A program made the translations under genes and the position numbers. 53,597 bases of DNA from Syntrophaceae bacterium (GTDB lineage: Bacteria; Desulfobacterota; Syntrophia; Syntrophales; UBA4778), in assembly GCA_039680225.1 (NCBI GenBank), contig JBDKTK010000417.1, positions 1 to 53,597 of the forward strand. The letters run 5' to 3'. The notes under the pieces are model-generated. The model made no database searches. It worked only from the letters and a program-made list of their open reading frames with translations, and was not told the DNA's origin. This document shows positions 1 through 7,573 of the stretch, in pieces. Position 1 is the stretch's first letter. Every line of letters begins with the position of its first letter.

Positions 1-1070
1 GGATATGATCCGAGTATTTTTATAAAGGTGGTCACTTTTTCCATCTGCCGCAGGCAGTCGGCTGTTTTCCGGCCGTTCGCATGCCCTTCGAAATCCAGGA
101 AGAACAGGTATTCCCAGTTCCTCTCCCGCATCGGGTAGGATTCGATGCGAAGCAGGTTGAGCCCCTGCGCGACGAACGGCCCCAGGGCCCTGTGCAACGC
201 TCCCGGGACATGCGCCGATCCCATGAGGATGGATGTCTTGTCGCGGTCCGACTCCCCCGACACCCCTGTCCGGCCTTCCCCGATGACGACGAACCTGGTC
301 GTGTTCAGATGGTAATCCTCGATTTCTTCTGCGACGATTTTCAGGCCATATTGTTTCGCGGCAAGGCTGCTCGCAATGGCCGCGCTCCCCTTTTCAAGGG
401 CGGCTTTCCGGGCTGCCGCCGCGGTGCTCGCCGCCTCGAAAAGGGGTACACCCGGGAGGTTCATCTTCAGCCATTGCCGGCACTGGGCTATGGCCTGGGG
501 ATGCGAGTATATTTTTTCGACCTTCTTCAGGCCTTTGCGGGAGGAAATGAGGCAATGCGAAATCCTCAGGAACTTTTCCGCCCTGATCTGGAGAGGCGTC
601 GTAATAAGGCGGTCAAGGGTGGCCTTCACCGAACCTTCAAGGGAGTTTTCGACCGGGACTATTCCCATCCGTGACTGTTTGCGCTCCACGGCGTCGAACA
701 CCTCCGATATCGATCCCTGCGGAACGAGCCTGATGCAGTTGCCAAAATGAGACAGAGCGGCCAGGTGGGAATACGACCCTTCGGGGCCGAGGAAAGCGAC
801 CGACATTTCCTCCTGGAGGGCCCGCGATGAAGAGAATATCTCGTTGTAAATCCCGCCGAGGGAACTGTCCGGAAGCGGCCCTTTGTTCATTTCGCGAACG
901 GATTTCAGGACCCTGCTTTCCTGGGACGGGTCATAGATGCTCAACCGGCGGGACCTCTTCCATTCGCCGATTTTAACGGACAGCGCGGCGCGGTCGTTGA
1001 GGGCCCGGACGATCTCCCGGTCTTTCTTCGCCAGGTCTTCCCTGAGTTTTTTGAGTTTGTCGCCCTTCAC
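1..1070 (-). CDS. pheA: bifunctional chorismate mutase / prephenate dehydratase (P-protein); 3' end runs off the window
   Basis: Not in the ORF track because there is no stop inside the window. Hand translation of the reverse strand from GTG at 1070 gives [38 protein letters not shown] (chorismate mutase helix). It continues VAFLGPEGSYSHLAA, GIVPVENSLEGSV, YSHPQAIAQC, NTTRFVVIG and LNLLRIESYP (prephenate dehydratase plus ACT motifs). The start forms a GTGA overlap with the aroB stop. Confidence 0.85.
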   Translation of the reverse strand, partial: MKGDKLKKLREDLAKKDREIVRALNDRAALSVKIGEWKRSRRLSIYDPSQESRVLKSVREMNKGPLPDSSLGGIYNEIFSSSRALQEEMSVAFLGPEGSYSHLAALSHFGNCIRLVPQGSISEVFDAVERKQSRMGIVPVENSLEGSVKATLDRLITTPLQIRAEKFLRISHCLISSRKGLKKVEKIYSHPQAIAQCRQWLKMNLPGVPLFEAASTAAAARKAALEKGSAAIASSLAAKQYGLKIVAEEIEDYHLNTTRFVVIGEGRTGVSGESDRDKTSILMGSAHVPGALHRALGPFVAQGLNLLRIESYPMRERNWEYLFFLDFEGHANGRKTADCLRQMEKVTTFIKILGSY

Positions 1071-2161
1071 GCTCGCAGCTCCCTGATCACGTCTTTTAAA
1101 ACATCATCCGGAACGCTCCCGTTCATGAACGGCATGCCCAGTTTTTTCAGCAGGACGAAGCGGACCGAATCGCCTTCTTTTTTCTTGTCGCTCTGGAGGC
1201 GCGACAGGATGCCGTCCGTTCCGATGTTCCCGGGGATGCAACAGGGCAGCCCCAGTGACGCGGCGAGGTTTTCGACCCGCAGCTTGTCTTTCTCCTGCAG
1301 GTAGCCCATCCGCTCCGAGATCTTCACGGCGCCGAGGATTCCCAGCACGACGGCCCTGCCGTGCGAAACGGAATAGCCCGATTCCGCCTCGATTGCATGG
1401 CCCATCGTGTGCCCGAAATTGAGGATGCGGCGGATCCCTTTTTCCGTTTCGTCTATTTCCACTATGGCCTTTTTTATCCCGCAGCACTTGGCGACAATCC
1501 TCTCCAGGAGGGCTTCGTCGCCGTTCCTTACGGCCTCGGGCCTCTTCTCCAGTTCGTCAAGGATGAACGGGTCGTCTATGATCCCGTATTTGATTATCTC
1601 GGCCAGGCCGTTGTTCAGTTCTTCCGGCGGCAGCGTCTTGAGGAATCCGATATTGATGAAGATCGCTTTCGGCTGGGAAAATGTCCCGAGCAGGTTCTTG
1701 CCGCACGGAAGGTCGATGCCGGTCTTGCCGCCGATGCTGCTGTCCACCTGGGCTATGAGGGTTGTCGGGACCTGGACATAAGGTATTCCCCGCATGAAAA
1801 TGGATGCGATGAAGCCCGCGATGTCACCCACAACGCCGCCCCCGAGCGCAATGATGCCCGATTGCCGGTCGGCCCCTTTCTCCATGAGTTCGCCGGAGAG
1901 ATGCATTACGGTGTCGATCGTCTTTGACCTCTCTCCGGCCGGGATCACCAGCTGCTCGGCCTTGAGCCCCGCTTCGAGCAATGCCGCCCGGACGCTTTCT
2001 CCGTGGATCCCGGCGACATTGGAATCGGTTATTACGAAGAGCCTGTTCGCCCAGTTCTTTTTGGCGATCACCAGCCCTATCCTGTCCAAAATATTCTTTC
2101 CAATGTATATTTCGTGGGACTTCACGGTCCTTTTGTCGAGATTGATCTTGATCCTGTTCAT
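1067..2161 (-). CDS. aroB: 3-dehydroquinate synthase
   Basis: 364-aa ORF with the glycine-rich nucleotide loop [12 protein letters not shown] and the metal-binding motif [11 protein letters not shown]. It has 4-nt overlaps with both neighbours, consistent with an operon. Confidence 0.9.
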
Positions 2162-3177
2162 TGTACGCTCCCTCTCATCACAACTGTAAGCCTGCCGATC
2201 TCCTCCATGAGCTGGTAATATTTTTCCGGCTTGAGCGACTGCAGGCCGTCCGAAACGGCCTTCTCCGGCTCGGGATGGACTTCCACCAGCAGACCGTCGG
2301 CGCCCACGGCAACCGCCGCCCGCGACAGGGGCAGCACGTATTTCCAGTGCCCGGCCGCATGGCTGGGGTCCACGATTACCGGCAGATGCGTCAGTTCCTT
2401 CAGCACCGGCACGGCGCTTATATCAAGCGTGTTGCGGGTGGCCGTCTCGAAAGTCCTGATCCCCCGCTCGCAAAGGATCACATTCTCATTTCCGGCCGAA
2501 AGGATGTACTCGGCAGACATGAGAAGCTCGTCAATCGTGGTCATCAGGCCCCTTTTCAGGAGGACAGGCTTATGGGCCAGGCCGACCCGTTTGAGGAGAG
2601 CAAAATTCTGGACGTTGCGCGCGCCGATCTGGAGGATATCGGCGTACTCCTCGATCATGTCCACGTCCGTCGTGTTCATCACTTCGGTGACAACGGGCAT
2701 GCCGGTCCAGTCATGCACTTTTTTCAGGAGCTTGAGCCCCTCCTCTTCCATCCCCTGGAAGCTGTACGGAGATGTCCGGGGCTTGAACGCGCCCCCGCGC
2801 ATGATCTGCGCCCCGCCCTTCCTGACGATATAGGCGCTCTCCATGAGCTGCTCTTCGCTTTCAATTGAGCAGGGGCCAGCCATGACCACGAAATTCGGCC
2901 CCCCGATCTCGACATCCCCGACTTTGACGACCGTCACCGCATCGCGGTACTCGCGGCTTGCCAGTTTGTACGGCTTGAGGATCGGCATGGTCTTCTCCAC
3001 CCCGGCCAGGTGCTCGGCGCTCTTGAGCTCGTTTTTGCCCCGTTCGTCGCCGACCGCCCCGATGATGGTCCTCTCGATGCCCCGCGAGGGGTGGGCCTTG
3101 TAGCCGACTGATTCAATCCAGCTGATCACGTTCTGAATCTCCGGTTCCGTTGCGTTCCTTTTCATAACTATTATCAT
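2158..3177 (-). CDS. aroF: 3-deoxy-7-phosphoheptulonate (DAHP) synthase, type I-beta, with N-terminal ferredoxin-like regulatory domain
   Basis: Tracked ORF is 2158..3264. I place the start at ATG 3177 ([17 protein letters not shown]), which follows the SD GGAGGTG at 3181-3187. KDO8P/DAHP synthase-type motifs [27 protein letters not shown] and VIVDPSH are present. The upstream 29 codons cover terminator hairpins and are unlikely to be coding. Confidence 0.85.
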
Positions 3178-3189
3178 TTCCACCTCCAG

Positions 3190-3269
3190 AAAAAAGGGCC
3201 ATGGAGGTTTCGCCCCCCATGGCCCCGAAAACAAAAAAGCCATGGGCAGCTTCAATCTACCCATGGCTT
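3190..3269 (-). terminator. tandem intrinsic-terminator hairpins forming the attenuator of the aro operon
   Basis: On the minus strand, AAGCCATGGG-N13-CCCATGGCTT is followed by TTTTGTTTT. Next, GGGCCATGGGGG-GCGAAA-CCTCCATGGCCC (12 bp including one G-U pair) is followed by TTTTTT. This second hairpin ends 2 nt before the aroF SD. Arms of the two hairpins are mutually complementary (CCCATGGC / GCCATGGG). Confidence 0.6.
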
Positions 3270-3289
3270 ATTTTTTTATTTAGTGCTTC

Positions 3290-3379
3290 TTAATTCCCCT
3301 TAAGCGATGGGCAGACCTGTGCGGTAAAATAATAATAGCTAAACCAGAAGCTGAAAAATTTTACCGTCATGCTGCGCAT
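3290..3379 (-). CDS. aromatic amino-acid leader peptide (29 aa), MRSMTVKFFSFWFSYYYFTAQVCPSLKGN
   Basis: Hand-translated small ORF not present in the track. Nine of 11 consecutive codons are Phe (5), Trp (1) or Tyr (3). It lies directly upstream of the terminator hairpins and the aroF-aroB-pheA operon. The SD is only weak (AAGGGA, 12 nt upstream). Confidence 0.55.
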   Translation of the reverse strand: MRSMTVKFFSFWFSYYYFTAQVCPSLKGN

Positions 3380-3473
3380 CTAATTACTTTGTCCCTTTTA
3401 TTCGGTTCCTTTAAATATCGGATCAGGTGCAAAAAGAGCACAAAAAGCGTTTCGTTGTCAAGGAAATTATTTT

Positions 3474-4388
3474 TCAGTATATCCCGAGGAGCCTCAGCAA
3501 CCCCCTTCTGTTCTCCTCAGGCTTCCTTATTGCGCTCCAGGAAACCGTCTTGCCGGAGTCTTTCCTGATCGTCCCTGTGATGCTGTCTTCATTGACAATT
3601 CCTTCGAAGTGCAGCTCGGTCCTGCTGTTGCCCGTGTTGAAGGTGATCCCCTCCCCTTTGATCCTGCCTTTTTTAATGCCCTTCTTCTCCTGCCCGGATT
3701 TGATTTTACCGGAGAACCTCTGGTAGCTCTGGGTCAGTTCCATCGTGAAAATCTCGGGGCCGTTGCCCAGGTCGGCCTCCCAATGCCATATTCCGTCAAC
3801 ACGCGCCGGTATCACCCAGAGGTAAAGATTGCGCCAGTCCACCCGGGCGCTCTTGTCCGGCACCCACTCTCCCATCGTATGGCAGTGGGACACGACCCTC
3901 GTGCCCGGCCTCAATTCATTGAGGAGCTTGGGCCGGAGCTTGATATTCACGTCCGGGTACAGGAAGAGCATGACAACTGTCGCCTTGCTCAGGTCGGAGT
4001 CGAACAGGTTTTGCTCGTAAAAAGTCACTCTGCCCGAAAGGCCTTCCTTGAGGGCGTTTTCCCTGCTCTCCTTGATGCGCCGGGGGTCGAGGTCGATCCC
4101 GACGGCGCGGCACCCGGCTATCCGGGCGGCAGCCAGCACGATCCGGCCGTCGCCGCAGCCGAGATCGTACACAATATCATTCTTTGTGACCCCGGCCATC
4201 CTGATCATCTCCTCCACGACCTCGGTGGGGGTCGGTTCATAAGGCACATCGAGCCCGGGCCTGGCGGCTTTTGCGTATTGCATTACATAAACCTCGCCGG
4301 AATTATCGAAGGAAAATGCATTTCCCGCAAGCGTTATAATCAGGGCGGACGCAAATATAAAGCATTCCTGTTTCCATTTCATCTTCAA
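3474..4388 (-). CDS. class I SAM-dependent methyltransferase with N-terminal signal/anchor sequence and extra C-terminal domain
   Basis: 304 aa with a hydrophobic N-terminus (CFIFASALIITLAGNAFS). SAM motif I is VYDLGCGDGRIV, preceded by VPYEPTP. It is a paralog of the next gene. Confidence 0.75.
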   Translation of the reverse strand: MKMKWKQECFIFASALIITLAGNAFSFDNSGEVYVMQYAKAARPGLDVPYEPTPTEVVEEMIRMAGVTKNDIVYDLGCGDGRIVLAAARIAGCRAVGIDLDPRRIKESRENALKEGLSGRVTFYEQNLFDSDLSKATVVMLFLYPDVNIKLRPKLLNELRPGTRVVSHCHTMGEWVPDKSARVDWRNLYLWVIPARVDGIWHWEADLGNGPEIFTMELTQSYQRFSGKIKSGQEKKGIKKGRIKGEGITFNTGNSRTELHFEGIVNEDSITGTIRKDSGKTVSWSAIRKPEENRRGLLRLLGIY

Positions 4389-4430: not shown

Positions 4431-5369
4431 TTATTTCAGCACCCTCAGTGTTTTCCGGATCTTATTGCCCGACCCCTCCAGGGGCTTGACAGACGAAGGC
4501 TCGCGCCTGGCCCGCCACGTCCCCCTGATCTCCCTGTCTTCAGGAGATGCAAAGGCGCCTTCCAGTACATTTCCCTTTGCCTTCCCGGTGAAGATAACCG
4601 CGATCGTGCCCCTGTCCGTCTTGCGGTCCACGGTGAAGCGCAGGTCGTCCCCGTTGAGCCTCACATTGCTGATGAGCGTGCGGCCGCTCTCCGCTGACAG
4701 GTCGCCGCCGACGACCTGGTAGCCCTGCTCGATCCTCAGTATCCGGCGAGTTGTGTTGTCTTTCTCCCGCATGGTGAAATTCCATGTGCCGCCGATATTG
4801 GCCGGCACCACCCAGAAATAGATGGAATGGCGCGCATCAAGATGGCGGGCCGTGTCCGGCAGCCAGTCGCCCATGCTGTAATTGTGGGATATGATCCTGG
4901 ACCCCGGCTTCATTTCGTTCAAAATGCGCGGCCGGAGTTTAACGTTGATTTCGGGCAGCAGGTAAAGGGCGAGGACCGTGGCCTCGGAAAAATCCACCTT
5001 GAACAGGTCCTGCTGGACAAATGTGACCTTCCCTTCGACATCGGCCTTTTTGGCATTGCTGCGGCACTCCGCTATCCGCTCCGGGTCTATGTCCACGCCG
5101 ACCCCCCGCGCCCCCGTTTTTTTGCAGGCGTCGATCACTATCCGGCCGTCGCCGCAGCCAAGGTCGTAAACGACATCATTTTCACCTATCCCGGCCATCC
5201 TGATCATCTCCGAGACAATATTGTCGGGAGTCGGGACGTACGGGACGTCGAGCCGCTCCGGCACCGTGTCTTCCAGGATCAGCGAGAACGAATGAGATGC
5301 CCCAATGAAACCGGCGAAACTGAAAAAAAGGAACAGGGCGATAACGGCCTTGAGAACTTGTCTTGTCAT
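4431..5369 (-). CDS. class I SAM-dependent methyltransferase, paralog of 3474..4388
   Basis: Tracked ORF 4431..5762 has an Arg/Pro-rich, implausible N-terminus that overlaps the permease gene. I place the start at ATG 5369 (MTRQVLKAVIALFLFFSFAGFIGA), with a GGAGAA SD. Motifs VPYVPTP and VYDLGCGDGRIV are present. By eye, about 60% identity to the neighbour over the catalytic domain. Confidence 0.75.
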   Translation of the reverse strand: MTRQVLKAVIALFLFFSFAGFIGASHSFSLILEDTVPERLDVPYVPTPDNIVSEMIRMAGIGENDVVYDLGCGDGRIVIDACKKTGARGVGVDIDPERIAECRSNAKKADVEGKVTFVQQDLFKVDFSEATVLALYLLPEINVKLRPRILNEMKPGSRIISHNYSMGDWLPDTARHLDARHSIYFWVVPANIGGTWNFTMREKDNTTRRILRIEQGYQVVGGDLSAESGRTLISNVRLNGDDLRFTVDRKTDRGTIAVIFTGKAKGNVLEGAFASPEDREIRGTWRARREPSSVKPLEGSGNKIRKTLRVLK

Positions 5370-5371
5370 GA

Positions 5372-6718
5372 CTATTTCTCCTTGCCTGAATATTCTTTGC
5401 TTATGCCGTTGCGAATAAATAAAAGGGGCACACCCGCGGCGAGGACTCCGATGCCGACCAGCGCGCCTTTGCCTGTATACGCGAGGCTCGACTGCAGCAT
5501 GTAAAGGCAAACAGCACAGAATAAAACGGGAGTCGCGGGATAGAGCGGAACGCTGAACGGCCGGGGGACGGACGGCTCCCTGATCCGCAGGACAATCACG
5601 GAAATCCCGACCAGGAGGAAGAAAAACCAGAAAACGGGCGCGGTGTATTCCACCATGGCCTCGAACCCGCTCCTGGCGCCGGTCCCGAGCACAACCAGCA
5701 GAAACGCGATCACGCCCTGCACGAGCATGGCGTTGATAGGGGTGCCGCACCTGTGGTGCCATTTGCCCATGTAACTGAAGATCTTGAAATCGGTGCCGAG
5801 GGCGTAATTGGTCCGGGCGCCGGTTATCATTGTCCCGTTCATTGTTGAGAGCACCGCAAGTATGACAATGACGCTGAGCAGCAGGGAGCCGCCTTCGCCC
5901 AGCCCCTTGCGCATGAGGTCCGCAGCGACCGCCTCGGAGCCGGACATCCCGGGTATCCCCAGTCCCCTGAGGAACACGAAATTAACGAGTACATAAACAG
6001 CGGTTATTATGCCGAGGCTGATGACAAGGACGCGGGACATGCTGGAGCCCCGGACCTCCGCAGAAAGGTATGCAGCTTCATTCCAGCCTCCATAAGTCAG
6101 CAGCACGAAAATCATTGCCTTGCCGAGGCCCGAGCCGTTGAGGACCGAAAAGCCGGCATATGCCATAGCGGCGGATGATCCGGATGATATGGAAGGGCAA
6201 TTAAGGCCGACAAGAAAAACGGCGCCCAGACCCAGCAGGATGCCGATGGTCAGGCCGTTCTGGAGCCAGCTTCCCTGGCGGATGCCCGCCGCGTTGATGA
6301 TCGTGAGCAGGACAACGGTTGAGCCGGCATAAATCGAGACCGAATACTGCCCCAGGCTCATTATGCCTGAAGCATAATCGCCGATCAGGAAGGCGAGCAT
6401 TGCCAGCGACCCCGTCTGGATCACGGTCATCCTTGCCCAGGCGAACAGGAAGGCCGGGGTCTGTCCGTAGGCGCGGGTCAGGTAATGATAGTCGCCCCCG
6501 GCGTTCGGGAATGTCGAGGTGAGCTCCGCATAGCAAAGCGCCCCGACGAGAGATATTGCCCCTCCGGCGAGCCAGACGAGCAGGACGGCCGCTTCGCTTC
6601 CCGCATTCGCCGCCACAATTGAGGGGGTCCTGAAGATTCCGGCCCCGATCACCACGCCCACTATTATGAAAATTGCGTCAAGCGGGGAAAGAGTCTTGCC
6701 GGGAGCTGCATTCTGCAT
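5372..6718 (-). CDS. APC-superfamily amino acid permease
   Basis: 448 aa with about 12 hydrophobic segments. The N-terminal motif IIVGVVIGAGIF...AGGAISLVGALCYAEL is typical of APC transporters. Confidence 0.8.
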   Translation of the reverse strand: MQNAAPGKTLSPLDAIFIIVGVVIGAGIFRTPSIVAANAGSEAAVLLVWLAGGAISLVGALCYAELTSTFPNAGGDYHYLTRAYGQTPAFLFAWARMTVIQTGSLAMLAFLIGDYASGIMSLGQYSVSIYAGSTVVLLTIINAAGIRQGSWLQNGLTIGILLGLGAVFLVGLNCPSISSGSSAAMAYAGFSVLNGSGLGKAMIFVLLTYGGWNEAAYLSAEVRGSSMSRVLVISLGIITAVYVLVNFVFLRGLGIPGMSGSEAVAADLMRKGLGEGGSLLLSVIVILAVLSTMNGTMITGARTNYALGTDFKIFSYMGKWHHRCGTPINAMLVQGVIAFLLVVLGTGARSGFEAMVEYTAPVFWFFFLLVGISVIVLRIREPSVPRPFSVPLYPATPVLFCAVCLYMLQSSLAYTGKGALVGIGVLAAGVPLLFIRNGISKEYSGKEK

Positions 6719-6895
6719 ACATCCTCCTGAATCTGTTTTGACTCGGGCGGATTCGGGATGAGGCCGAAATTGCAGGCGGGATCAGAAGGGAAAATATCAG
6801 TTCATATAAAATTAGTATTGCCAGCCGGGCAAAGTCAAGGCAAAGTCAAGGAAGAGCACGGCTGTTGAAGGTCGCATCCAAATCCAGGAAGAACA

Positions 6896-7573
6896 ATGAC
6901 CTCGAAGGACGCCTATCGGAGTATCGCCCGCTTTTTCCCGGCGCTGGATTTCATCCTGGACGCCTTCCTCCGGAGCGCCAGGGACGACCTGATCGCCTTT
7001 CTCAAAAGAGAGGATCTTCATAAGGTGCTGGACCTGGGCTGCGGGACGGGGGGCCTCTCGAGGATACTGGCGGACCGGGGATTCTCTCCCGTCTGCCTGG
7101 ATGTATCGGAAGCCATGCTGGAAAGGGCGGAAAGGAACTCATGCAGGCCGCCGCAATTTTCCGTTGTCCATTCAAAGGGGGGGAGCCTGCCCTTCGGCGC
7201 CGAATTCGATGCGTCCGTAATGAGGTTCGTGCTGCACGAGATGTCCCCCGCCGTGAGAGAGGCGACGCTCGGGGAACTGCGCCGGGTGGTCCGGCCGGGC
7301 GGTTTTATGATCTTCATTGATTTCATCCGTCCGGATAATGACTCTTTTTATCCCCGGCTCGGCGCTTCCCTCATACGCTTCATAGAATCGCGGATGACCA
7401 GGGTCCATGCCCCTCACTATGAAAACTTTTCGGACCTCATGGCGCAAGGCGGCGCTCTCAAATGGCTCGAAACCAGGTGCGGAAAAGCCCATATGCTCAG
7501 GACTTACTTCGGCGCCAATATAGGGCTTATCGGTATCAGGCTGACCGGGCGGCCGGGGCCTGGCCATGCCTGA
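6896..7573 (+). CDS. class I SAM-dependent methyltransferase (UbiE/Methyltransf_11-like)
   Basis: 225 aa with motif I VLDLGCGTGG and post-I LDVSEAML. Its end overlaps the next gene's start by 8 nt. Confidence 0.75.
   Translation: MTSKDAYRSIARFFPALDFILDAFLRSARDDLIAFLKREDLHKVLDLGCGTGGLSRILADRGFSPVCLDVSEAMLERAERNSCRPPQFSVVHSKGGSLPFGAEFDASVMRFVLHEMSPAVREATLGELRRVVRPGGFMIFIDFIRPDNDSFYPRLGASLIRFIESRMTRVHAPHYENFSDLMAQGGALKWLETRCGKAHMLRTYFGANIGLIGIRLTGRPGPGHA

Follow-up and report, generated by a model that had tools for sequence, protein, structure and literature searches.

We analyzed a stretch of 53,597 nucleotides (nt) from a Syntrophaceae bacterium (GenBank assembly GCA_039680225.1, contig JBDKTK010000417.1; hereafter the window), in which a short leader with an aromatic open reading frame (ORF) and two hairpins precedes an operon for the synthesis of aromatic amino acids. 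The operon lies on the minus strand. Its first gene, aroF (2158..3177), encodes a 3-deoxy-7-phosphoheptulonate (DAHP) synthase of the Thermotoga/Bacillus type (NF006421, 512 bits for a cut-off of 335). It starts with an ATG at 3177, behind the Shine-Dalgarno sequence GGAGGUG (3187-3181), and an AGGAGG-like motif stands at the same position in the aligned relatives. It is followed by aroB (1067..2161), coding for 3-dehydroquinate synthase (TIGR01357, 379 bits, cut-off 305), whose start overlaps the aroF stop, and by pheA (1..1070), coding for a chorismate mutase/prephenate dehydratase with CM_2, PDT and ACT domains. The GTG start of pheA (1070) overlaps the aroB stop, and its 3' end lies outside the window. 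In one relative (locus L045), the operon extends to aroD, the gene of a type I dehydroquinase. The next gene upstream on the same strand encodes a methyltransferase, which has no relation to the aromatic pathway.

The leader ORF (3379..3290, minus strand) has 29 codons plus a stop and encodes MRSMTVKFFSFWFSYYYFTAQVCPSLKGN. It was found exactly where an earlier note on this DNA, the original prediction, had placed it, with nine phenylalanine (Phe), tryptophan (Trp) or tyrosine (Tyr) codons out of eleven. These are codons 8-18 (3358-3326), UUU UUC AGC UUC UGG UUU AGC UAU UAU UAU UUU, which read FFSFWFSYYYF and comprise five Phe, one Trp and three Tyr. When the 296-nt intergenic region was shuffled 5000 times while keeping its dinucleotides, no shuffle reached 9 aromatic codons out of 11 in an ORF starting with ATG, the maximum being 7. 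The locus thus has a short ORF in its 5' leader, with predicted translation, and in it a cluster of codons for the amino acids of the downstream pathway, both of which are expected of an attenuator.

A terminator scan identified two hairpins between this ORF and aroF. Terminator 1 (3269-3237) pairs what we call segment 3 (3269-3256) with segment 4 (3249-3237) in a stem of 13 pairs (7 G-C) closed by a loop of 7 nt; it is followed by UUUUUUGUUUU, with the U-run at 3238-3228, and folds at -22.0 kcal/mol. Terminator 2 (3226-3195) pairs segment 5 (3226-3214) with segment 6 (3207-3195) in 13 pairs (9 G-C) with a loop of 6 nt, is followed by UUUUUU (3195-3190), and folds at -27.5 kcal/mol. Both hairpins and their U-runs had been predicted, with hairpin 1 drawn as 10 base pairs around 13 unpaired nt rather than as the 13-pair stem and 7-nt loop found here. 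The 231-nt leader as a whole folds at -82.7 kcal/mol (z = -5.5), which none of 200 shuffles equalled. In the minimum free energy (MFE) structure, an A-rich tract (3280-3270) pairs with the U-run of terminator 1 (3238-3228), taking this hairpin from -22.0 to -28.4 kcal/mol. Extended in this way terminator 1 looks bidirectional, although no convergent gene is present. As the hairpin arms share a CCATGG core, we considered whether this is a genome-wide repeat akin to repetitive extragenic palindromes and rejected it, since GCCATGG is not enriched outside the leader. It has 20 sites in the window, four of them inside the 70-nt hairpin region, and is elsewhere at background frequency. Hence, the hairpins are not copies of a genomic repeat.

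Two further segments lie in the ORF itself. Segment 2 (3315-3303, minus strand; UCUGCCCAUCGCU) encodes the residues VCPS, nearly repeats segment 4 and can pair with segment 3. The original prediction had noticed this near copy, giving it 11 nt where we count 13. Within the window its motif is specific to the leader, and the matches at 51.1 kb sit inside a permease gene. It is placed between the regulatory codons and the stop, and can take the 5' arm of terminator 1, as an antiterminator would. Segment 1 (3380-3372, minus strand; GAUGCGCAG in the window and AUGGACAGA in most loci) spans the leader start codon and is bound to segment 2 in the MFE structure. The pairing of segments 1 and 2 (written 1:2 below) had been missed before, as had a conserved upstream promoter and sister elements with Trp-only or Phe-only leaders, both described further on.

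To study the distribution of the element, we scanned for AroF in one genome per species. This gave 80 loci, of which 3 are cut by contig ends and 77 have enough upstream sequence; the same element stands upstream of aroF in all 77. The genomes belong to Syntrophaceae, Smithellaceae, "Syntrophales" metagenome-assembled genomes (MAGs), or MAGs labelled Deltaproteobacteria or Thermodesulfobacteriota, with AroF proteins 75-94% identical. A separate search for AroF protein homologues returned proteins that are all at least 77% identical, and it does not set the phylogenetic limits of the element. Independently of any protein, metagenome contigs were scanned with the RNA pattern alone (segment 2, segment 3, segment 4). 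At least 120 loci were found, and among the matches listed aroF is immediately downstream in 88 of 120. Unless another set is named, the statistics on pairing and reading frame given below refer to an alignment of 78 sequences, every one of which has an ORF homologous to the leader. In other words, the aromatic mini-ORF and the hairpins are both kept upstream of aroF in relatives, which had been named beforehand as a check of the prediction. A few loci (L012, L013, L019, L023, L060, L064, as well as L083 and L088) carry an extra 100-220 nt, rich in G+C, between terminator 2 and the aroF Shine-Dalgarno sequence. This insert is conserved among L012, L013, L019 and L023 (e.g., at about 2868-2990 in L012), had no family match in Rfam at gathering score, and may represent either a mobile insert or another regulatory RNA.

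The alignment supports the pairings at several levels. Run without any hint, RNAalifold predicts exactly the two terminators. In terminator 1, 94.6% of the alignment cells are paired and 5 pairs have compensatory changes; for terminator 2 the figures are 97.9% and 7, so the compensatory changes that the original prediction proposed to look for are present in both hairpins. Taken together, the pairings of the termination state (1:2, 3:4 and 5:6) are formed in 92.8% of cells, with 16 pairs changed on both sides, and their pairing and covariation were matched by none of 500 shuffles. Helix 1:2 has 84.6% of its cells paired and 4 pairs changed on both sides. The alternative helices 2:3 and 4:5, both already proposed from the window, are kept in 87.3% and 97.7% of cells, for comparison with 28-42% in controls where the partner is slid along the sequence; 12 of the 13 positions of 2:3 pair, and the 13th, a conserved C.C mismatch, is unpaired in all 78 sequences. 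Mean duplex energies along the chain are -11.1 (1:2), -17.9 (2:3), -20.9 (3:4), -19.5 (4:5) and -21.8 kcal/mol (5:6), against -4 to -13 kcal/mol for non-adjacent segments and -6 to -9 kcal/mol for shuffles. The shuffle means are -5.8 for 1:2 and -8.8 for 2:3, and 2:3 in the window reaches -19.3 kcal/mol. Since neighbours bind each other more strongly than non-neighbours or shuffles do, the complementarity has a direction along the chain and is more than the common CCAUGG palindrome would give.

The leader is also constrained as a reading frame. In 70 of the 78 loci, the start codon occupies a conserved alignment column and is in frame; in 3 further loci the ATG lies one codon upstream of this column, again in frame. 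The spacers measure 57, 60, 63, 66, 69 or 72 nt, each a multiple of three. From the start codon to segment 2, frame 0 has no stop in any locus, versus stops in 63 and 43 of the 78 loci in the other two frames. Leaders have on average 7.6 aromatic codons in frame 0, versus 2.8-3.0 in the other frames. Their mean composition is 2.8 Phe, 3.8 Tyr and 1.2 Trp, with Trp present in 70 of the 78. Phe, Tyr and Trp swap freely between the leaders of different species, and both synonymous codons are in use for Tyr (TAT 235 times, TAC 63) and for Phe (TTT 178, TTC 41). Relative to the window, an in-frame insertion of 3 nt adds a fourth Tyr codon to the YYY run in locus L001 and in a metatranscriptome strain variant (run X26, window position 3327). 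Hence, what is conserved is the aromatic codon rather than the peptide sequence. The length of the regulatory run is polymorphic in the population through this same Tyr-codon insertion. The conserved ends of the peptide, MDR, MGR or MNR at the N-terminus (MRS in the window) and VCPSLRR at the C-terminus, are preserved down to the nucleotides, even at third codon positions. In L052, L059 and L077, a +1 insertion alters the C-terminal residues and leaves the nucleotides UCUGCCC... of segment 2 unchanged.

The same RNA scaffold also occurs with other leaders. We compared at least 178 loci carrying it, and the following counts refer to the matches listed. In 154 loci the downstream gene is aroF and the leaders average 3.1 Phe, 3.7 Tyr and 1.3 Trp. 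In 13 others (L086, L098, L104, L107, L121, L123, L137, L150, L165, L171, L179, L184 and L188, all in metagenome contigs), it encodes a secreted outer-membrane protein of the Phenol_MetA_deg family (PF13557, 270 bits), followed by an M23 peptidase, and the leaders average 3.5 Trp, 0.5 Phe and 0.2 Tyr. These leaders (e.g., MAGQARIHSIGWWWAGSSSRVCPS*) have a WWW or WWWW run and a stop codon directly after segment 2; in L165, the element lies at about 6255-6331 and the gene at 5258-6178, both on the minus strand. Two loci precede a gene for phenylacetate-CoA ligase, PaaK (TIGR02155, 643.5 bits, just under the cut-off of 646.3), and have 7 Phe and no Tyr on average (e.g., MTGFFRFDFIGFTGGFFFRKSAHGRAG*). 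One is L093 (element 5626-5725 on the plus strand, gene 5832-7028; 8 Phe, no Tyr). The other is L143 (element and genes on the minus strand, genes at 2005-2994 and 625-1926; 6 Phe, no Tyr), in which a TPR protein precedes PaaK and an ACT-domain protein follows it. In the remaining 9 loci, the contig ends before any downstream gene, and the leaders are of the mixed Phe/Tyr/Trp type. Six further pattern matches lay inside coding DNA and were discarded as chance.

The aroF, Trp and Phe types share segment 2, the two terminators and the register of the codon run, and differ in codon identity alone. Because leader codons change with the downstream gene on an otherwise constant scaffold, these loci argue for a codon-specific reading by the ribosome, which is, to our knowledge, the only reader that would care about the identity of leader codons. 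The sister elements are the strongest comparative argument and give strong support to codon-specific sensing. A PF13557 protein behind a Trp run suggests a Trp-controlled uptake channel, and PaaK behind a Phe run may point to a Phe-controlled salvage of phenylacetate into Phe.

We assign a probability of about 80% to the following reading of the locus in the window: an attenuator of aroF-aroB-pheA(-aroD) that senses the charging of tRNA-Phe, tRNA-Tyr and tRNA-Trp, and in which the pairing 4:5 relays the decision to the second terminator. That it is at least a leader-peptide attenuator, mediated by the ribosome and responding to the supply of aromatic amino acids, appears very probable from its sequence. 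That 4:5 is what cancels terminator 2 is a step towards which we lean with less assurance. Transcription would start at a promoter just upstream of the leader, producing an RNA with six segments, each complementary to its neighbours. When aromatic amino acids are plentiful, the ribosome would pass segment 2 and reach the stop, 3:4 would form, and the polymerase would halt at the first U-run; any polymerase escaping terminator 1 would then run into 5:6 with the second U-run. The pairing 1:2 would form behind the ribosome, or without translation, and keep segment 2 from segment 3. Under scarcity of Phe, Tyr or Trp, the ribosome would stall on the aromatic codons and the free segment 2 would pair with segment 3 as it emerges. 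Segment 4, freed in turn, would bind segment 5 ahead of the synthesis of segment 6, so that both terminators would fail to form and the operon would be transcribed.

The geometry of the leader is consistent with such a relay. An mRNA is opened by the ribosome as far as about 11 nt past the first base in the P site. In the window, the distance from the first base of the last aromatic codon (UUU, 3328-3326) to segment 2 is 13 nt (the median in relatives is 10 nt), so that a ribosome awaiting an aromatic aminoacyl-tRNA would leave segment 2 just clear. The leader stop (3292-3290) comes 10 nt behind segment 2, with segment 3 a further 21 nt on, and a terminating ribosome would cover the 3' part of segment 2 without hindering hairpin 1. 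Folding the window RNA in order of its synthesis gives 2:3 before segment 4 emerges (-16.8 kcal/mol), terminator 1 with its A/U extension as the minimum once segment 4 is out (-28.4 kcal/mol), and 2:3 with 4:5 as the global MFE as long as segment 6 is missing (-41.8 kcal/mol). The interpretation of the locus as an attenuator, first advanced in the original prediction, gains from the conservation of the element, the compensatory changes, the proposed pairings and the transcription of the leader, described below.

A number of observations weigh against this reading and have to be set beside it. In the full RNA with segment 2 free, the two terminators together (-56.7 kcal/mol) are favoured over 2:3 with terminator 2 (-46.2 kcal/mol) and over 2:3 with 4:5 (-41.8 kcal/mol). 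Equilibrium folding was therefore rejected as a predictor of the stalled state, as it always favours the terminators, and read-through would need a kinetic trap set by the order of synthesis: the partner made first would hold its strand during the short stay of the polymerase at each U-run. Segment 3 is fully covered by segment 2, and of the 13 nt of segment 5 segment 4 occupies 10-11, so that a terminator strand arriving later would probably find no toehold. Covariation is a second difficulty. Helices 2:3 and 4:5 have almost no double-sided changes (2 pairs, no better than shuffles), and they rest on conserved pairing rather than on covariation. The scarcity comes from the segments being nearly invariant, which is expected of strands that must fit two partners. 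Moreover, the complementarity of 4:5 is partly a by-product of the self-complementary CCAUGG core.

These points raise the possibility that only terminator 1 is controlled by the ribosome, terminator 2 being a constitutive, partly leaky back-up or a stabilizing hairpin whose only effect is a lower output, and 4:5 a side effect of CCAUGG, which we regard as unlikely and yet as the best of the alternatives. Besides the lack of double-sided covariation in 4:5, it would account for terminator 2 being more stable than 4:5 once segment 6 is out (-27.5 against -19.1 kcal/mol), and for four Trp-type loci (L086, L107, L165 and L171) in which 4:5 is no stronger than shuffles. It would also fit L063 (2782-3000), which has a single terminator before aroF, L041 (2753-3002), where the U-run of terminator 1 is degenerate (GGTTTAAAGAG) and terminator 2 intact, and the Syntrophus-type loci, whose terminator 2 has a poor tail (UUACUUAUUU). 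However, terminator 2 is strong and sits directly before the Shine-Dalgarno sequence, leaving no space for a promoter behind it, and if constitutive it would throttle the operon. Both terminators are retained in 171 of the 178 scaffold loci (among the matches listed). Nor does the palindrome fully explain 4:5, which beats 3:5, 4:6 and shuffles by 5-8 kcal/mol in all three core classes of terminator 2. These include 29 loci whose terminator 2 lacks CCAUGG or CCGUGG, with a mean of -16.1 kcal/mol for 4:5 and of about -9.5 kcal/mol for 3:5 and 4:6; overall, 4:5 stays at -16 to -17.5 kcal/mol even where terminator 2 has no CCAUGG core. In the consensus, 4:5 spans nearly the whole 5' arm of terminator 2, again without a toehold.

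The start of the transcript raises further points against the main reading. In the window, the candidate -35 box of the leader promoter is a perfect TTGACA (3461-3456, minus strand), and the -10 box that pairs with it is poor and uncertain (CTCTTT after TGTG, 3438-3433), with 82 nt from the -35 to the leader ATG. An alternative promoter would combine TTGTGC (3443-3438) with GATATT (3419-3414). In relatives, the signal is clearer: a TTGAC[AT] stands no more than 110 nt before the leader ATG in every one of the 78 loci, mostly at 55-63 nt, and is often followed at a spacing of 17 nt by a -10 like TATATA or TATAAG. The Shine-Dalgarno sequence of the leader is modest over the 78 loci (-5.4 vs. -3.0 kcal/mol) and weak in the window itself. 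Metatranscriptome contigs of the window organism cover the leader (3286-3485) and aroF (up to 3049), with a gap over the hairpins that may be a mere assembly break. They run on upstream of the predicted -35, into the upstream gene, and together with the poor -10 box make any transcription start placed in the window tentative. In a Syntrophus MAG (L016), the contigs of four runs begin at 2768, 2769, 2781 and 2832, against a leader ATG at 2790 and a -35 at 2720. The starts upstream of the ATG lie 9-22 nt from it and no contig reaches further upstream. In this relative, contigs that include the leader thus begin about 20 nt before its ATG and not downstream of it, a downstream start being what the original prediction had put forward as a possible refutation. 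Two of the contigs end at 2954-2958, just beyond the first U-run, and two read into aroF; leader and aroF depths (4.5 vs. 2.8 and 4.6 vs. 2.3) differ too weakly to be used. These contigs show that the leader is transcribed, and they fit a leader that has its own promoter and is partly read through, although assembled contigs, which do not resolve 3' ends, prove neither of the two.

Could the mini-ORF encode a functional small hydrophobic protein, or remain untranslated, with the hairpins serving as plain terminators, either for a small RNA or for the methyltransferase gene before the leader, while aroF is regulated separately? The RNA contigs that continue from the upstream gene into the leader in the window organism, and the modest leader Shine-Dalgarno sequence, are what such an arrangement would produce. 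It is nevertheless very improbable. A conserved promoter separates the upstream gene from the leader in all 78 loci, the upstream gene itself varies among loci where the linkage of leader and aroF is conserved, and the interval between terminator 2 and aroF is too short for a promoter. Conservation of the peptide is limited to its aromatic character and to the stretches that also serve as RNA segments, of which the frameshift variants keep the RNA only, and leader composition switches with the downstream gene. Searches of NCBIfam and Pfam at E <= 10 with the leader peptides of the window and of three relatives gave no family. Less probable still is antitermination by a trans factor instead of the ribosome. 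Firmicutes do regulate aromatic operons in this way, with uncharged tRNA at T-boxes and with RNA-binding proteins such as TRAP, and the repeated CCAUGG cores could conceivably bind a protein, but the leader has no T-box or other accepted Rfam family, and neither a reading-frame constraint nor codon-specific leaders play a role in such mechanisms.

Family searches bear on how such an element could go unnoticed. With Rfam on positions 2900-3800 of the window, the His_leader (RF00514, 27.6 bits, gathering score 49), the Phe_leader (RF01859, 22.3 bits, gathering score 55) and the trpB motif (RF04312, 22.4 bits, gathering score 59) all scored below threshold, and no T-box matched in this interval even at E <= 10. 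We rejected the three weak matches as terminator look-alikes, because their alignments cover little beyond a terminator hairpin. Seven related loci had no Rfam family at gathering score. A literature search on Syntrophus and deltaproteobacterial leader peptides, aroF attenuators and tandem terminators, which did not take in Lopatovskaya et al. 2010, found no description of the element. The paper of Rodionov et al. 2004 on regulons of delta-proteobacteria, considered as a possible earlier account of aromatic attenuators, mentions no attenuators, leader peptides or aromatic genes. Judged by its sequence, the element qualifies as a leader-peptide attenuator, and it belongs to no curated family. 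As neither Rfam nor Pfam nor NCBIfam has an entry for it, annotation does not reveal it.

Around the leader, a few other features are of interest. The 5' part of segment 6, CCUCCA (3207-3202), is complementary to the UGGAGG of the aroF Shine-Dalgarno region (3188-3183, minus strand), so that opening terminator 2 could let segment 6 mask this site. The complementarity is found in the window and in L001 and is not kept in the other relatives. Upstream of the leader, the minus-strand ORFs 3474-4388, 4431-5762 and 5372-6718 correspond to two paralogous methyltransferases and an adjoining amino-acid transporter ORF. Both paralogues resemble the archaeal protein-lysine N-methyltransferase NF041081 (139 and 135 bits, under the cut-off of 200). 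The ORFs 4431-5762 and 5372-6718, as listed, overlap by 390 nt, and one of their starts is probably wrong.

The sister elements allow a wider and more tentative proposal, to which we would give slightly less than even odds. Syntrophales and related anaerobes may use one six-segment "domino" chassis with two serial terminators as a programmable amino-acid sensor, exchanging only the codon run of the leader, and a single stalled ribosome would cancel both terminators by 2:3 and then 4:5. A mixed Phe/Tyr/Trp run would then stand for the common aromatic pathway. A run of three or four Trp would stand for the Phenol_MetA_deg-family channel, presumably for the uptake of Trp, indole or an aromatic precursor, and a Phe run for phenylacetate-CoA ligase, presumably for the reductive synthesis of Phe from phenylacetate. 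If this is true, a relay over two terminators would leak less in the off state and respond more steeply than a single terminator. Gene regulation is almost unknown in the syntrophic, mostly uncultured Thermodesulfobacteriota, for which the element is a concrete and widespread cis-regulator. A chassis with different codon runs before different regulons is a natural swap experiment, and as such unusually direct comparative evidence for codon-specific sensing by the ribosome. It also flags the putative Trp-controlled channel and Phe-controlled PaaK as likely players in the aromatic amino-acid economy of anaerobic digesters and sediments. For RNA engineers, one sensor that gates two serial terminators through a pairing relay would be a compact switch design with low leakage.

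One of the closest known systems is hisL of E. coli and Salmonella. In 1980, Johnston and colleagues reportedly proposed for it a model with six segments, in which A:B, C:D and E:F compete with B:C and D:E. As in hisL, the leader described here has an ORF with a run of regulatory codons, and six segments that alternate between termination and read-through pairings would relay the position of the ribosome down the chain; the general mechanism is the one set out in PMC3896937. Unlike in hisL, where only the last hairpin (E:F) terminates, the middle hairpin 3:4 is here a terminator with its own U-run, giving two stops in series. The codons are a mixture of Phe, Tyr and Trp rather than those of one amino acid, segment 1 includes the leader start codon, and the two leaders have no similarity in sequence or model, as the match to His_leader concerns the terminator only.

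The pathway under control recalls pheL-pheA and trpL-trpEDCBA of E. coli, where, as is predicted here, an intrinsic terminator preceding genes for aromatic biosynthesis is governed by ribosomes that stall at aromatic codons. In trpL, the terminator is more stable than the antiterminator and the decision is kinetic. The terminator of our element is likewise the more stable of the two. Unlike in pheL and trpL, each of which has one amino acid and one terminator, the element combines three amino acids with two terminators, is found in another lineage (Thermodesulfobacteriota), and precedes an operon whose first genes encode two enzymes of the common pathway, DAHP synthase and dehydroquinate synthase. 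A leader mixing aromatic residues had been called unusual in the original prediction. This stands in relation to pheL and trpL, and is tempered by the aroR leader upstream of aroF in Corynebacterium glutamicum, which has Phe-Tyr-Phe (Neshat et al. 2014, as cited in PMC11802643). The two have in common more than one kind of aromatic residue and an attenuated operon that begins with DAHP synthase. According to the description in PMC11802643, by which alone we compare them, aroR attenuation responds to Phe and not to Tyr, and tandem terminators do not figure in that description. Furthermore, aroR is actinobacterial and has three aromatic residues, versus 6-9 here. The resemblance is functional.

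Two conditional stops in series within one leader are also found in tandem riboswitches and T-boxes and in the tandem attenuators of Salmonella mgtCBR, and two serial stops are known to sharpen or combine the response of such leaders. Those systems have two sensors, either aptamers or short ORFs, whereas here one leader ORF appears to gate both terminators. The two serial terminators under one leader, the mixed run for three amino acids and the reuse of the chassis for at least three regulons make the form of the element new. It is classical attenuation in a new form, rather than a new principle, the principle being fifty years old.

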